From an uncultured Nitrospiraceae bacterium (GTDB lineage: Bacteria; Nitrospirota; Thermodesulfovibrionia; Thermodesulfovibrionales; Dissulfurispiraceae), in assembly GCA_963727805.1 (NCBI GenBank), contig CAVSHF010000003.1, forward strand, positions 576,001 to 640,000: a stretch of DNA of 64,000 nucleotides. Reading direction: 5' to 3'. Below the pieces are notes generated by a model, which was not told where the DNA came from, ran no database searches, and saw only the letters and a list, made by a program, of their open reading frames with translations. Numbering within the stretch: the first letter of the stretch is position 1; every line of letters starts with the position of its first letter. Shown here piece by piece: positions 29,692 through 52,677 of the stretch. The translations under genes and the position numbers were made by a program.

Positions 29692-31016
29692 CAGAAGCGT
29701 CCCAACGTTAATCGAACAATATCAACTGGTTCTCGGACAACGTGTCGTTATCGCCGATCTGTGTATCTGTAAGTATCTGTATTAAAGGTGTTCTCTCAAA
29801 CATGGTCACGCTCAATATCTGTAGAATCGTATAGAGACTTGCCTGTAATTTGAGACGTTTCTTTATGATCGCCACCAGAACATATATCGATACGGCGATC
29901 CAAACCTGAGTTTTGACTGCATTGTCGCTTGTTCCGTAGAAACTCTTGATTCTGAGGTTCTGTTTGATCCACTTGAAAAAGAGTTCCACCTGCCACCGGC
30001 ATCGATATAGTTGAGCTATCGTCATTGCTGGAAGCGTGAAATTGTTGGTAAGAAATACCAGAGTCTTGTCCAATTCGGCGTCGTGATATTTGATCTTGCG
30101 AATTTTCTCCGGATAGTGAGAGGCCGAATAGAATCCGGTTAGCGTACCGCTTTGATCGCAGATAAGCCCCGTTGTCCGATCTACAGGATGGGAATACTGT
30201 CTGCGAAATTTGAAATTGGATTTGCCTCGGGTGACGAAGAACGCCCTGCTCAAATGCAACATATACAGTCTGGCAAAATCCAGATATCCTCGGTCCATTA
30301 TGTAGAATGCTCCTGGCTCTATAACAAGACAATCCAGAATATTTACTTCGTGCATCTTGCCATCGCTTATATGAATGAACGTTGGGATGTTGCCGCGAAG
30401 ATCCAGTAGCGTATGGAGCTTGACTGCAGCCTTTGTCTGACGAAAATGCGCCCATGGGAATACTGATAGACACAGGTCGATAGTCGTTGCATCCAGTGCG
30501 TATACCGTCTGATCCAGTTGCACGCCGAAGTCTTCGTCCAAATAAAGTGCACGGGCTTTCTGAATCAGGCAATGAGCGAAGTCGGCATAGATGCGCCAGT
30601 CCCTTACCTTGTTGGCGTTGGCCAAGGTGTTTCTGGATACATTGCCACGAATGCCCATGTGATAGAGTTTGCTTCTTTGAGATCGAAGGCACGATTCGAT
30701 ATCTCTCAGACTTTCCCGATAGGTCAGTTGCGCAAAGGCCATGCATAGATACTGATCCAGACAAGTGAAGTCTTTGATCTTGTAATTCCCACGATAACGG
30801 TTGACGCTCCGATGAAAGGCTGGTAGTGGTATGTGTTCGACGACCTGAGAGAAAATCAGCTTGCCTGTATACATGGGTACGCTCCTCGTGTTTGTTACCA
30901 CGAGAATGACGGATGCCCAAACTTCTTTTCAAGTCGTTTTCGTGCTCCATTATCAATTCCATATGTTATTTCAATATGTTAAACTCAATCCGTCATTAAA
31001 CGTTGGGACACTTCTG
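29692..31016 (-). mobile_element. IS4-family insertion sequence (1325 bp)
   Basis: Terminal IRs CAGAAGYGTCCCAACGTT; 9-bp target duplication ATTGTCCAT at 29683-29691 and 31017-31025. Confidence 0.95.
29708..30874 (-). CDS. IS4 family transposase (DUF4372 + DDE)
   Basis: DATTIDL, MDRGY, YRCRWQVELFFKWIKQ (YREK motif). Confidence 0.95.
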   Translation of the reverse strand: MYTGKLIFSQVVEHIPLPAFHRSVNRYRGNYKIKDFTCLDQYLCMAFAQLTYRESLRDIESCLRSQRSKLYHMGIRGNVSRNTLANANKVRDWRIYADFAHCLIQKARALYLDEDFGVQLDQTVYALDATTIDLCLSVFPWAHFRQTKAAVKLHTLLDLRGNIPTFIHISDGKMHEVNILDCLVIEPGAFYIMDRGYLDFARLYMLHLSRAFFVTRGKSNFKFRRQYSHPVDRTTGLICDQSGTLTGFYSASHYPEKIRKIKYHDAELDKTLVFLTNNFTLPAMTIAQLYRCRWQVELFFKWIKQNLRIKSFYGTSDNAVKTQVWIAVSIYVLVAIIKKRLKLQASLYTILQILSVTMFERTPLIQILTDTQIGDNDTLSENQLILFD

Positions 31017-34198: not shown

Positions 34199-35572
34199 CT
34201 ATATCTTTGGAAGGCTAAAGTAAAATGTCGCTCCCTGCCCCACGGCACCTTCAGCCCAGACCTTTCCGCCATGGCGGGCAATAATGCGCTGCACATTGGC
34301 AAGGCCAATGCCTGTGCCTTCAAATTCATCTTGGGTATGAAGACGCTGGAATACGCCGAAGATCCTATCCGCATATTTCATATCAAATCCTACTCCATTA
34401 TCCGAGATTGAGCAGCTGATTTTATCATCCTCATCAGTGCATCCCATCTTTATTTCAGCCTGCAGACGCGTACGTGTGAACTTGACAGCATTGGAGAACA
34501 GATTGAAAATCGCAAGTCTCAATAATGACTCGTCTCCGAGTACATCAGGCAATTTATCGATTTTCCATCTAATCTGCCCTTCCTTGAGTTCTTCATTAAA
34601 TTCCTGAACAATCTCGCTTACCAGGGCATTCAAATTTACTTTTCTTTTCTGCATCTCTTTACTCCCGACGTGCGAAAGGGCGAGTAGATCCTGGATAAGT
34701 TTATCCATCTTTTTTGAGACCTTGATTATTGAAGCCATGTACTGATGAGTTTTCTCGTCAGGATGGTCAGCTATTTGTTTTTGCAGTCGTTCTACAAATC
34801 CTGACATATGCCGTAAGGGTGCACGAAGATCATGAGATACTGAGTAGCTGAAAGCTTCAAGCTCTTTGTTTGCAGCAATCAAGTCGGTGGTACGCTCAGC
34901 TACTTGTTCCTCCAACTGCCTCCGGTATCCCTCCAACTGCGTTTCAGTCCGTTTCCTCTCCTCTATTTCAGCAAGCAGTTCCTCATTGGTTACCGATAGC
35001 TCAGCCGTCCTCCTCATAACTTTCAGGTCTAATTCGTCATGAGCTCTTCTGAGGGATTCCTCAGCTTTTTTACGTTCGGAAACATCGCGTATGACTGCAA
35101 TCACGAACATCTCTTCCTTGGCTTTCAGAGGTCCAAGGGCGATATCCACTGAGAATTCGCTTCCATCCTTCTTTCTGCCGTAAAGTTCCAGCCCCGTGCC
35201 CATCGGTCGGACATGAGGATCAGTCATATAAGTCCGGCGATGTTTCTTGTGTTTTTTCCTGAATCTGTCCGGCAGAAGGATATCATGATCGGCATTAGTC
35301 AATTCATTAGTAGAATATCCGAACAATCTCTCAGCCTGTTTATTGGCCCGAACAATCTGGCCGCTACTATCTACGACTATGATACCATCAGGGGCAAATT
35401 CGAAGAGGCCTTCGAACATAGCCTTTGTTCTACTGAGCTCCTCCTGGTACTTCTTTTTGTCCTCTTCTGACTGTTCCATCTCACTGATTCGTGAACGCAA
35501 CTTCGTCAGGTCCCGTATTAACTGCTCCTTTGTAAGATCGTCGGGTGATCTCATATGGTCCTTTTGGAACAA
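34199..35572 (-). CDS. PAS histidine kinase (Cph1/BphP-like kinase core)
   Basis: PAS (RPMGTGLELYG), FSYSVSHDLRAPLR, FEGTGIGLA. Confidence 0.93.
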   Translation of the reverse strand: MFQKDHMRSPDDLTKEQLIRDLTKLRSRISEMEQSEEDKKKYQEELSRTKAMFEGLFEFAPDGIIVVDSSGQIVRANKQAERLFGYSTNELTNADHDILLPDRFRKKHKKHRRTYMTDPHVRPMGTGLELYGRKKDGSEFSVDIALGPLKAKEEMFVIAVIRDVSERKKAEESLRRAHDELDLKVMRRTAELSVTNEELLAEIEERKRTETQLEGYRRQLEEQVAERTTDLIAANKELEAFSYSVSHDLRAPLRHMSGFVERLQKQIADHPDEKTHQYMASIIKVSKKMDKLIQDLLALSHVGSKEMQKRKVNLNALVSEIVQEFNEELKEGQIRWKIDKLPDVLGDESLLRLAIFNLFSNAVKFTRTRLQAEIKMGCTDEDDKISCSISDNGVGFDMKYADRIFGVFQRLHTQDEFEGTGIGLANVQRIIARHGGKVWAEGAVGQGATFYFSLPKI

Positions 35573-35976
35573 ATAGATAGGCTACTGATCTTTACTTGAA
35601 CTCCTAGTAGGTTTTTCCGGAAGTGAATGTGACCGATGATATCTCGTGCTTTTCCGTCCGAGCGATTCGGCTCTTTTTTCATTTCAGTTTCCTCGATAGC
35701 GTAATATTAGAGCTATTCAAGTATATACCAGTTCAGCATGAATTGAACAACTGGATATTTCGGCTGGCCGAAGACAGAATAAGCTATTTTGCGAATAGTA
35801 AGATCGACTGTTGCAAAGAAAACCACTCGCGTTCTGCTTATATTTTTGACCGAAGAGATCGGGTCGTTTGCGCAATATTTCTTCCTGCTAGACCGACGCT
35901 CTCCTCCTGGAAATATTGCCTGCAAGAAAGTCATCGATTTTACCCGTACCAGGAATTTGGTGATTTCCCGAAGTAA

Positions 35977-36614
35977 GTGCGCCACGAGGCTGCACAGGAA
36001 GATGAGGGTTGGCCCCTCGAAGCCGGCTTGCAGGAGCAGGCTTCAACCCACCTTAAGCTGCTGTAGTCGAAAGGCTCCGGTGGTGAGCGTTAAAGGAAAA
36101 GGCACGACTAGATCGTGTCAGGGATGGATCAGAGAGATGAGCGTAAGCGAACCGCTGATGAGGTGTCGAAAGGAAAAGGACGACGTCAAAACTGATGTTC
36201 TTACTTTGCATCAGGATTAGTTCAGGAGATACCTGTTTACTGCCTGAACGGCGTCCGGCATAGAGGCGGCATGAAGCTGATCTAGGCTCCTGTGTGGAAC
36301 GCGGGAACTCTTCATCTGATGCTAAGAGAAAACCCTATAAGTGCAAACGAAGGGGGAAAGTATCGATGCAGGTGAAGGGGTCGGACCGTCCAATAGTACC
36401 GATGAAGCGGTGATAATAAGCCGTGGAGGGAAGGGGATGGGTCAATCCACAAAGAGTACCAGTCAACTGGGTGACCAGGAGGAACTATCGCTCAATGTGT
36501 ATGGTTGAGACTGCAAAGACTCAACTTGATGATTGACACGAGCCGTATGAATCGAGAGGTTCACGTACGGAATCTGTGAGGGGCTGGTGGTGCGATTCCA
36601 CCGGCCTACTCGAC
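35977..36614 (+). ncRNA. ORF-less group II intron (IIB-like ribozyme)
   Basis: 5' GTGCG; domain V GAGCCGTATGAATC-GAGA-GGTTCACGTACGG (36540-36574); domain VI with bulged A ending CTACTCGAC; EBS1 TTACTT pairs with the upstream exon AAGTAA. No RT ORF. Confidence 0.9.
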
Positions 36615-36788
36615 CTGTAATAGCCGCTTTGTAGGCACCTTTACTAGGTTTTATAGATGTTTTACTCATTGAGCATATAGAATCTTATTAAAGCGATAAA
36701 AAACATTGCAAATGACCCCACCCAACAATTAGGAAATTTATAAAATTCCCCATCGCAAAAATGCCTATTATCTACTATGTGATTCGCA

Positions 36789-37367
36789 TTATTTTTTAGC
36801 TAAGGCCCAAACAACCATCGGGAAACGAGCATCGTTCTCAAGAGAATGTTTACGCTGATCATATACAATCCATGAATCCAGATTTGCAATTGCGCAACTT
36901 TTGTTACCCCATGAACCGGTTTGTATGTGTTCCGCCGGGAAACCGGCCTCTTCCAAGAAATATTTCAAGCCAGTCTCAGTCCAGCGCGTACAATCCTCTG
37001 GTGCCGGATGGTATAGGATAAGAAACGGGGTCGTTATAAGAAAATATCCTCCAGCATTAAGCATTGAATAAACATTTTTTGCTGCACGATGAGGATAAAT
37101 CAGATGTTCAAACACTTGCTCTGCAATAATAAGATCAAACGTTTCATCCAGCTTATCCTTGCAAATATCGATCTCGGGATAACAAAGCGTTTTATAGGAT
37201 TTGAAATTGAAATCCTTCCACTTCACGCCTGATATTTCGAGAATGCTCATTTGGGAATGATCTATTTTTTCGACTAGTCTCTTAGTCGCGTCTTCCATCA
37301 CGATCCGACACCATTGATCGGAAGCCGTTGTTTCTCTGCGTTTCAGCTTTTTTAAGAAATTAAACAT
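36789..37367 (-). CDS. Class I SAM-dependent methyltransferase
   Basis: ILEISG, FDLIIAEQVFEH, LNAGGYFLITTPF. Confidence 0.85.
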   Translation of the reverse strand: MFNFLKKLKRRETTASDQWCRIVMEDATKRLVEKIDHSQMSILEISGVKWKDFNFKSYKTLCYPEIDICKDKLDETFDLIIAEQVFEHLIYPHRAAKNVYSMLNAGGYFLITTPFLILYHPAPEDCTRWTETGLKYFLEEAGFPAEHIQTGSWGNKSCAIANLDSWIVYDQRKHSLENDARFPMVVWALAKK

Positions 37368-52564: not shown

Positions 52565-52611
52565 TTAAAAAGCCGAGTCTGACGAAGTTAATTCCTTCGG
52601 CAACCCGGCTG
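52565..52611 (-). terminator. Terminator overlapping the riboswitch aptamer
   Basis: AGCCGGGUUGCCGAAG...CUUCGUCAGACUCGGCU followed by UUUU. Confidence 0.7.
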
Positions 52612-52677
52612 TCTTCTACCTGGAAGACCCGTTGCTTTCCGTCCCCTTCTCACGAAAGGTTTGGCCTTATCGAGACC
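52593..52677 (-). ncRNA. c-di-GMP-I (GEMM-I) riboswitch
   Basis: CGAUAAGGCCAAACCUUUC-GUGA-GAAGGGGACGGAAAGCAACGGGUCUUC...GAAGACAGCCGGGUUGCCGA matches the GEMM-I architecture. Confidence 0.9.

Follow-up and report, generated by a model that had tools for sequence, protein, structure and literature searches.

The window is the whole stretch of DNA that was analysed, 64,000 nt in length. On its forward strand it carries a group II intron that lies in an intergenic region, in antisense orientation to both neighbouring genes. The intron, its target and its flanks consist of the following features.

34199..35572, minus strand: PAS histidine kinase gene (flanking context)
35926..35976, plus strand: 5' portion of the dispersed intergenic repeat in which the target lies; the repeat continues at 36615-36632
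35964..35968, plus strand: IBS2, TTTCC, at -13 to -9, with a 2-nt linker to IBS1
35971..35976, plus strand: IBS1, AAGTAA, paired at 4 to 6 of 6 positions at all 10 sites
35977..36614, plus strand: ORF-less group II intron, class D-type, subgroup IIB, one of 10 genomic copies
35982..36304, plus strand: domain I, 91% identical over nt 1-330 to a co-resident RT-bearing class D intron and presumably acquired by recombination
36031..36034, plus strand: alpha (CAGG), with the predicted partner alpha' (CCTG) at 36232-36235; compensatory TAGG/CCTA variants occur in the family
36062..36079, plus strand: IC1 tip with a GAAA loop at 36069-36072, a patch of the ORF-less-clade type within an RT-type domain I
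36172..36176, plus strand: EBS2, GGAAA, paired with TTTCC at 35964-35968 (5/5)
36201..36206, plus strand: EBS1, TTACTT, in a CTGATG/CATCAG stem-loop, 6/6 Watson-Crick with IBS1
36263..36263, plus strand: EBS3 (G), in an alignment column that covaries with +1 in the family
36303..36307, plus strand: putative breakpoint of recombination where domains I and II meet (intron nt 327-331), from a max-chi scan
36308..36380, plus strand: domain II of the ORF-less-clade type, from fold and sequence type
36386..36440, plus strand: domain III, from covariation and fold
36441..36537, plus strand: domain IV, 97 nt, with a basal stem, a DIVa-like arm and a GCAA-capped hairpin, from covariation
36540..36574, plus strand: domain V, with the AGC triad at 36541-36543, a GAGA loop at 36554-36557 and an AC bulge
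36578..36611, plus strand: domain VI, with a bulged A36608 located 7 nt before the 3' end
36615..36615, plus strand: IBS3 (+1 C), C at 10/10 sites
36789..37367, minus strand: methyltransferase gene (flanking context)

Elsewhere in the window, a c-di-GMP-I-GGC riboswitch lies at 52595-52674 on the minus strand (RF03167, 71.3 bits), and a 397-aa ORF at 29708-30901 on the same strand is judged by eye from its sequence to be a putative IS4-family transposase.

The intron is 638 nt long and runs from GTGCG at 35977 to AC at 36614, which are the 5' GUGYG and 3' AY ends of group II introns; these coordinates were rechecked. RF01999 at 36004-36123 (109.8 bits) and RF00029 at 36538-36614 (45.4 bits) match above the Rfam gathering scores. 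All six ribozyme domains are present, including the catalytic domain V and a bulged A in domain VI, and A36608 is the predicted branch point. Domain I is closed by pairing of nt 6-10 with nt 324-328, as read off alignments, and it contains the CAGG and CCTG segments that we take to be alpha and alpha'. The fold of the full-length intron has a z score of -3.9 against 20 shuffles. When folded separately as drawn, domains II, III and IV each give z scores of about -2.5, domain V gives -2.95 and domain VI -4.35; the EBS1 stem-loop gives -4.56, and the IC1 piece is a weaker fold (z = -1.69). The EBS1-IBS1, EBS2-IBS2 and EBS3-IBS3 pairings of subgroup IIB are all present. An EBS2a-IBS2a pair at -14 is described for IIB1 and IIB2 only in the available text of PMC8643678, and position -14 is A in 7/10 sites of the ten-copy intron.

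The usual position of the ORF in domain IV is occupied by the GCAA-capped hairpin (36503-36526), and a GGAGG on the DIVa-like arm is a candidate maturase site. A tblastn comparison with 46 class D RT frames detected no RT remnant inside the intron (best E value 0.013). The 3' strand of domain V reads CGG-AA-UC and is one base longer than usual, the extra A at 36571-36572 being placed opposite the catalytic triad. Two bases occupy this spot in 6 of 55 members of the ORF-less clade described below, and the extra base is evidently tolerated by ten recent copies. A G-A at the triad position of domain V was considered as a special feature and rejected, since it occurs in 10/44 RT-bearing and 16/55 ORF-less rows.

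A sequence-only reading of this DNA had placed the two intron ends and the EBS1 and EBS2 pairings exactly where they are found here and had noted the AGC triad and GAGA loop of domain V, and the Rfam models it proposed as a check both match. EBS3 and the extra base in domain V had escaped it. It had also described domain IV as a short stub lacking an RT. The RT is indeed absent, but the domain is a conserved, covarying structure and not the leftover of a local deletion. It had named a failure of domains I-III to fold as counter-evidence; domains II and III and the EBS1 stem-loop do fold.

The genome contains ten full copies of the intron; nine are identical and one has a single substitution. 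Flanks differ among all ten, and the ends of the copies are the exact ends of the intron. IBS2 is paired at 4-5 of 5 positions at 10/10 sites, with a linker of 2 nt in nine and 1 nt in one, and columns -12 to -9 hold T, T, C and C at 9, 9, 9 and 10 of the ten sites, respectively. A loose target rule (IBS1 at least 4/6, IBS2 at least 4/5, +1 C) applies to about 0.3% of genome positions. The rule of this site, namely fully paired IBS1 and IBS2 with +1 C, applies to 36 of 7.8 million genome positions when G-T pairs are allowed.

When the intron is removed from this copy, the junction aligns across the site to seven empty paralogues, five of which remain under a stricter cut-off. A gap-free junction match to empty paralogues is found for 6/10 copies, at least three empty paralogues exist for 5/10 copies compared with 10/200 random 80-mers, and longer queries with a looser cut-off reveal empty paralogues for 8/10 copies. 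Because the junctions align gap-free to empty paralogues, insertion is precise and occurs without target duplication. To judge from these alignments, the insertions appear to be mostly into a dispersed intergenic repeat. The repeat family to which 35926-35976 and 36615-36632 belong has many copies on contigs C3, C4 and C5. The empty site that had been proposed as a check is present as paralogous repeats in the genome, but no orthologous empty site was found in seven same-genus genomes, where a search did not find the 3' flank either.

None of the ten copies splits an ORF of at least 90 aa; the site at C3:743947 resembles a paralogous gene start, but a stop follows after about 28 codons. Eight of the ten copies, a small count, lie on the G-rich strand, and this copy is one of the two on the C-rich strand; the excess is in the direction that lagging-strand priming would favour. 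Upstream of this copy no promoter-like site was detected, and a promoter and terminator scan performed no better than chance. Neither splice joints that skip the intron nor intron circles occur in the assembled contigs of 8 runs, and viral contigs gave no matches. RNA-library contigs from wetland (five studies; X11, X17-X20) carry a variant that is about 96% alike, covers most of the intron and has changed EBS1 and EBS3. Because contigs cannot show transcription, these were not used as evidence.

Introns of the RF01999 type number 14 in this genome, consisting of the ten copies, two RT-bearing introns (F) and two further introns, O2 and O3. The two F copies are 1835 nt each and differ at 2 positions. 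Their 412-aa ORF is intact (TIGR04416, 437 bits) and matches RVT_1 and GIIM and no other Pfam domain. The F RT has no endonuclease and carries the motif LX3AX3PXLF[V/A]HW, which is the class D C-terminal motif (PMC4615759). F, an intact class D RT intron, is likely to be the helper of the 638-nt intron. The class D feature of an encoded RT/maturase with a class D C-tail and no endonuclease is absent from the 638-nt intron, and because it has neither an ORF nor a remnant, it is class D-type by its RNA only. The RNA groups with class D ribozymes, domain I being nested among RT-bearing class D introns, and the rows nearest to its 3' clade are the class D RT introns L228 and L050, in trees without an outgroup from another class.

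O2 (L004; G000:C3:690343-689720, about 622 nt) is a single-copy ORF-less class D intron in a repeat with empty paralogues; the 5' and the 3' tree both place it with RT introns. It keeps an N-terminal remnant of the ORF and is an independent ORF deletion of the local type. O3 (L001; G000:C3:2011708-2012346) is an unswapped member of the ORF-less clade, present in one copy. It interrupts a TnpB-like ORF in sense orientation, which without the intron is open for 506 codons and matches PF07282, and a c-di-GMP riboswitch lies about 0.7 kb downstream.

The ORF-less clade was searched for with a motif from the start of domain II (nt 328-366). The motif matches at least 80 metagenome loci and 23 genome loci, and among the matches listed the titles name at least six phyla: Nitrospirota, Thermodesulfobacteriota (together with deltaproteobacteria), Pseudomonadota, Bacillota, Gemmatimonadota and Acidobacteriota. 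The 109 matches listed, which include nine rows for three tandem copies (three overlapping loci), comprise 90 that are ORF-less and have domain V no more than 300 nt away (233-241 nt in 83 of them), 11 cut by a contig end, 7 interrupted ones and one (L228) with an RT ORF. Consistently, a motif-independent BLAST screen (398 scored genomes, family of G063; 25 matches) separates the two kinds, as 10/10 matches at 83% or more over 100 nt are ORF-less, 11/11 matches at 68-75% are RT-bearing, and four are short or broken. The element is rare in the host phylum, where 3 of 401 sampled genomes match domains II-III, one of them weakly.

Two other patterns were also searched. A domain III pattern retrieved ten Bacillota loci, nine with RF02004 and eight with an RT that is 30-41% like that of class D; since these loci share only about 40 nt, they were rejected as belonging to another class. 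A domain IVa pattern was too specific and gave no matches. Since L186 and O2 represent independent ORF deletions, neither was kept in the clade.

Among 39 aligned members, domains III-VI are 94.9% paired, a percentage that is favoured because the structure was drawn from this intron, and 47/70 pairs show two-sided changes. None of the 500 shuffles and none of the slid controls reaches these values. Pairing is weaker in the outer DIVa helix (79.9% in the 39 members). In domain IV, 6/7 pairs of the basal stem and 10/10 pairs of the ORF-replacing hairpin covary, and the loop of the hairpin is GNRA in 38/39 members. EBS1 pairs at 6/6 positions with its own 5' exon in 30/47 cognate versus 23/2134 non-cognate pairs, and in the family EBS2 pairs at 5/5 positions in 17/47 cognate versus 50/2136 non-cognate pairs; six rows were set aside beforehand, and four had no 5' end or flank. 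The EBS3 column (G36263) is Watson-Crick to +1 in 36/38 members with all four pair types. Because EBS1 and EBS3 match their own targets across the clade, the clade kept changing its targets without an ORF of its own. Pairwise identity over nt 367-515 in 58 rows of the clade has a median of 74%, and RT-bearing introns at an equal RNA distance encode proteins that are about 64% identical.

Members of the clade are frequently nested, as 24/69 flanked rows (23 places, near-copies included) are inserted in the 5' part of class D-type introns at six positions, one of them at about nt 335 of the host intron. The member on the Caballeronia plasmid NZ_CP049319.1 sits within domain I of an intron whose ltrA is intact and 56% like the RT of F. 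A class D RT match of at least 50% identity is present in 13/18 carrier assemblies (6 of the 13 matches being full-length without stops) and in 1/58 non-carrier relatives, a link that is partly created by nesting and whose control is drawn from the order of the host only. Such a match is absent from 5/18 carrier assemblies. L294 (G074:C2:665899-666538), the only copy in an assembly of 6.4 Mb that lacks a class D RT match, may be stranded with no helper at hand. Clade members are arranged head to tail in tandem at L190 and at L215-L217 in G065, where the three copies start inside domain I of another class D-type intron.

The relationships of the 638-nt intron change along its length. Identity to F is 91% over nt 1-330 and 53% over nt 331-520, and identity to O3 is 68% and 85% over the same two segments. 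In a max-chi scan against O3 the best breakpoint falls at the domain I/II junction, at nt 327, and the first O3-type site comes at 332; RT-type and ORF-less-type sites number 95 and 17 before the breakpoint and 11 and 67 after it. Trees were built from 55 non-redundant ORF-less members (of 74 complete), L228, six local rows and 55 non-redundant RT-bearing class D introns, the latter from 64 usable ones among the 80 best relatives of the RT of F. One clade contains 58/59 ORF-less rows in the nt 335-515 tree (100/90) and 56/57 in the nt 367-515 tree (100/88), which leaves out the search motif and five long or misaligned rows. The exception in the latter tree is L186, which keeps an ORF remnant. 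In the nt 1-320 tree, this intron, L146 and the identical L023 and L210 (counted once) are sister to F (100/98), and the 5' part of a 48-row subset yields the same grouping (100/99). Because F groups with the same RT-bearing introns in the 5' and 3' trees, this intron, not F, is the recombinant. The ORF-less label undergoes 6-9 changes in the 5' trees, 4-5 of them forced by strong branches. With groups named from the tree of the other segment and with no other intron class rooting the trees, the AU test rejects a grouping of this intron with F for the 3' segment (p 3.6e-4), and for the 5' segment it rejects a grouping with the 3' relatives of the intron (p 4.1e-6).

Seven other rows have breakpoints at 317-332, none of them deeper in domain I. 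The signal is good for L146, L023, L187, L211 and L229 and weaker for L159, and the 5' signal of L190 is flat (30:30 sites). Because the search motif at nt 328-366 forbids later breakpoints, only the lower limit of this range is informative. Within domain I of the 638-nt intron, 90 informative sites are F-type and 13 are ORF-less-type, and 9 of these 13 lie in a single run at the IC1 tip (nt 86-103); such clustering arose in 0 of 200000 permutations. The loop of the IC1 tip docks on domain II (theta-theta'). The tip of the ORF-less clade accompanies the domain II type in 54/61 versus 4/56 rows, which are related to one another, with L187 and L229 as exceptions to the rule. IC1 also contacts domain VI, and in the available account of class C chimeras a mismatch between IC1 and domain VI lowers branching about 10-fold (PMC4748821). 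Given these contacts and the association between tip and domain II, it is reasonable to infer that selection for fit kept the IC1 tip. The intron thus has three breakpoints, so that patchwise conversion fits better than one crossover, and collapse of a twintron by a single crossover was rejected as the whole story for this copy. L228 and L050, which are RT-bearing class D introns, carry the domain II type of the ORF-less clade; they are either the nearest RT-bearing kin of the clade or swaps in the opposite direction.

The best explanation, which we regard as probable, is that this is an ORF-less intron that likely spreads by retrohoming, with the co-resident class D RT acting in trans, and that it is likely a recombinant, with domain I from the lineage of the helper and domains II-VI from the widespread ORF-less clade. 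The sequence-only reading had proposed a non-autonomous element that arrived by homing and is served by a maturase encoded elsewhere. The first part agrees with the search for sister copies, which found ten near-identical copies at distinct EBS-matched sites with precise junctions. The second is supported by the two intact class D RT introns in the genome. The intron is a mosaic and not their deletion derivative. Its remark that compact ORF-less introns are uncommon does not stand for this type, which is widespread and not a one-off.

In the proposed mechanism, a copy would be transcribed by read-through and would splice as a lariat at A36608. Domain IV is regarded as the main maturase site, and the helper RT would bind the retained DIVa-like arm. 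Because nt 331-520 is only 53% like the helper, so that domain IV does not come from F, recognition by the RT of F is something that we infer. Domain I would then pair through EBS1, EBS2 and EBS3 with a DNA target, mostly in the dispersed intergenic repeat, allowing the RNA to reverse-splice, and the RT, lacking an endonuclease, may prime at replication forks in an RmInt1-like manner. A co-resident RT intron may have supplied a new domain I through homologous recombination or gene conversion, an exchange favoured by the frequent insertion of clade members into class D introns, and the IC1 tip may have been retained because of its required fit to domains II and VI.

A bolder reading, to which we give slightly less than an even chance, is that the clade is an undescribed, old, single-origin, protein-less class D lineage in at least six phyla that lives as a parasite of RT introns. 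It would home into class D introns, borrow their RT and repeatedly take over their entire domain I up to the domain I/II junction with the IC1 tip alone kept, the swap gaining the protein contacts and targets of the local helper. If true, this would be a bacterial counterpart of SINE partner-switching, and domain I would be shown by nature to be an exchangeable module. In the SINE-LINE system of eukaryotes, a long-lived non-autonomous lineage depends on the RT of its partner and takes over partner sequence. The likeness is an analogy only, because the chemistry is different and the part exchanged here is the 5' target-reading domain.

A rival with a substantial claim, although we would put it appreciably short of even, accepts the same intron and the same clade but takes the domain I exchange as neutral gene conversion without gain of helper or target; it bears only on what the swap means. 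According to the accessible part of PMC3522654, group II intron copies do undergo gene conversion with one another, and according to that of PMC4615759, related class D IEPs can partly replace one another although no swap has taken place. Furthermore, many clade members with an ORF-less-type domain I still have matched targets, and the upper limit of the breakpoints is set by the search motif. However, the recombinant has reached ten copies, whereas the unswapped O3 has one and the helper two, and the seven other rows place no breakpoint deeper in domain I than 317-332. The IC1 tip is moreover the only unconverted patch, at the place where a mismatch with domain VI is costly in class C chimeras (about 10-fold in branching, PMC4748821), and its type tracks that of domain II in the related rows counted above.

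It is improbable that the intron is mobile by means of a different resident RT or spliced by host factors alone. The genome does encode four other intact group II intron RTs, three of 436 aa and one of 490 aa. Clade members L133, L178 and L204, as well as L221, are inserted in RT genes of other intron classes, whose products are 30-37% identical to the class D RT, and some carrier genomes lack a class D RT. However, the resident 436-aa and 490-aa RTs are only 33-39% identical to the class D RT and go with the 5' models RF02005 and RF02012, whereas the intron RNA is RF01999-type like that of the class D helper, and the target consensus of both is similar. The introns with the 436-aa RTs (L019-L021, RF02005) have no RF00029 match at the gathering score, and the 490-aa RT belongs to L018 (RF02012).

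It is very unlikely that the ten copies represent a relic, decayed or immobile, that DNA duplication has multiplied, or that they are an artefact of assembly. In favour of this view one may count the identity of nine copies, the odd extra base of domain V and the best-matching run, X1, which may be the source sample and hence not independent. However, the copies end exactly at the intron ends, have different flanks and are each EBS-matched; a contig of another study (X2) carries 35971-36569 without a difference next to a different upstream flank; and the near-identical relatives L146 and L175 have changed EBS1 and EBS3 together with their sites. A lone copy with a ragged deletion in domain IV, named earlier as the sign of a decayed intron, is not what is found, as there are ten copies without an ORF remnant. 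The least tenable alternative, to which we give hardly any weight, is that the intron derives from the co-resident RT intron by a local ORF deletion, in the way that TeI3 derives from TeI4: BLAST identity to F reaches 89% over nt 1-356 and such a deletion occurred once in this genome, in O2 with its N-terminal remnant, but the low identity beyond nt 330, the lack of any ORF remnant, the AU rejection of a grouping with the helper in the 3' part and the homology of domain IV to ORF-less introns of other phyla stand against it.

Reviews, in the parts available, describe ORF-less bacterial group II introns as rare and nearly always found beside a closely related RT intron, and predict that few have been overlooked (PMC4424553, PMC3245105). 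Co-evolution of intron RNA and RT as a unit is given as the general rule in the available text of PMC12584367. A clade that remained ORF-less and mobile while diverging to a median of 74% (domains II-IV), together with domain I exchange, would break both views. It would model the step from a self-sufficient retroelement to a trans-dependent intron that has been proposed for the origin of spliceosomal introns, and for ribozyme structure and targetron work it offers natural domain I chimeras together with a compact scaffold of 638 nt. The model is directly testable in Caballeronia SBC2, a soil strain in culture in which a member lies within its likely helper.

It is already established that ORF-less introns are moved in trans. 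A trans-moved ORF-less intron in phage LPJP1 is presented as speculation in the available text of PMC12350094. A cross-phylum ORF-less class D clade or a natural domain I exchange was not found in any report, in a search from which subscription papers were mostly outside, and clade members may already be listed in intron databases or supplements.

Nested introns of Methanosarcina acetivorans (Dai and Zimmerly 2003, as cited in PMC4424553) also home into group II introns. However, homologous recombination on nested copies deletes them there and yields no mobile domain I chimeras, as far as the available text of PMC4424553 goes, and most sites of the present clade, unlike theirs, lie in domains I-II of class D introns. 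The Bacillus cereus group (B.c.I7 and B.th.I2) and Trichodesmium (dnaN introns) likewise have near-identical ORF-less copies, with a complete relative thought or shown to supply the protein (PMC2504315, PMC12584367, both available in part). Unlike the 638-nt intron, these are local derivatives, B.c.I7 retaining the first 13 and last 28 bp of the ORF (PMC2504315), and the available portions of the two reports describe neither a wide clade nor domain exchange for them (PMC2504315, PMC12584367).

RmInt1, RmInt2 and Sr.md.I1 of Sinorhizobium (class D / IIB3) share with the helper the C-terminal motif and the lack of an endonuclease, and share with the present intron EBS1/2/3 recognition and multicopy spread into repeated targets, according to the available text of PMC4615759 and PMC5894124. 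The 2-nt linker between IBS1 and IBS2 is also found in RmInt2, and an RmInt-type IEP can act in trans (PMC4615759, PMC5894124). In contrast to the 638-nt intron, which encodes none, all three encode their own IEP, and RmInt1 needs T-15 (PMC4615759, PMC5894124), whereas G or A is present at -15 in 10/10 sites here.

The closest parallel in behaviour is the ORF-less TeI3 of Thermosynechococcus elongatus, which is mobilised by TeI4 IEPs, with action of the IEP in trans demonstrated in the available account (PMC2882425). In both systems the ORF-less copies are more numerous than the RT-bearing ones, their sites match the EBS, twintrons with RT-bearing relatives occur, and domain IV has been remodelled (PMC2882425). 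However, TeI3 arose by deletion from a resident intron within one genome and keeps ORF remnants, and its closest relative, EcI5, has a CL1 RT with an endonuclease (PMC2882425). The whole RNA of the present intron is not closest to a resident RT intron, nor does it keep ORF remnants. Unlike TeI3, the 638-nt intron is of class D, its 3' part belongs to a cross-phylum clade, and its domain I has probably been exchanged with that of its likely helper.
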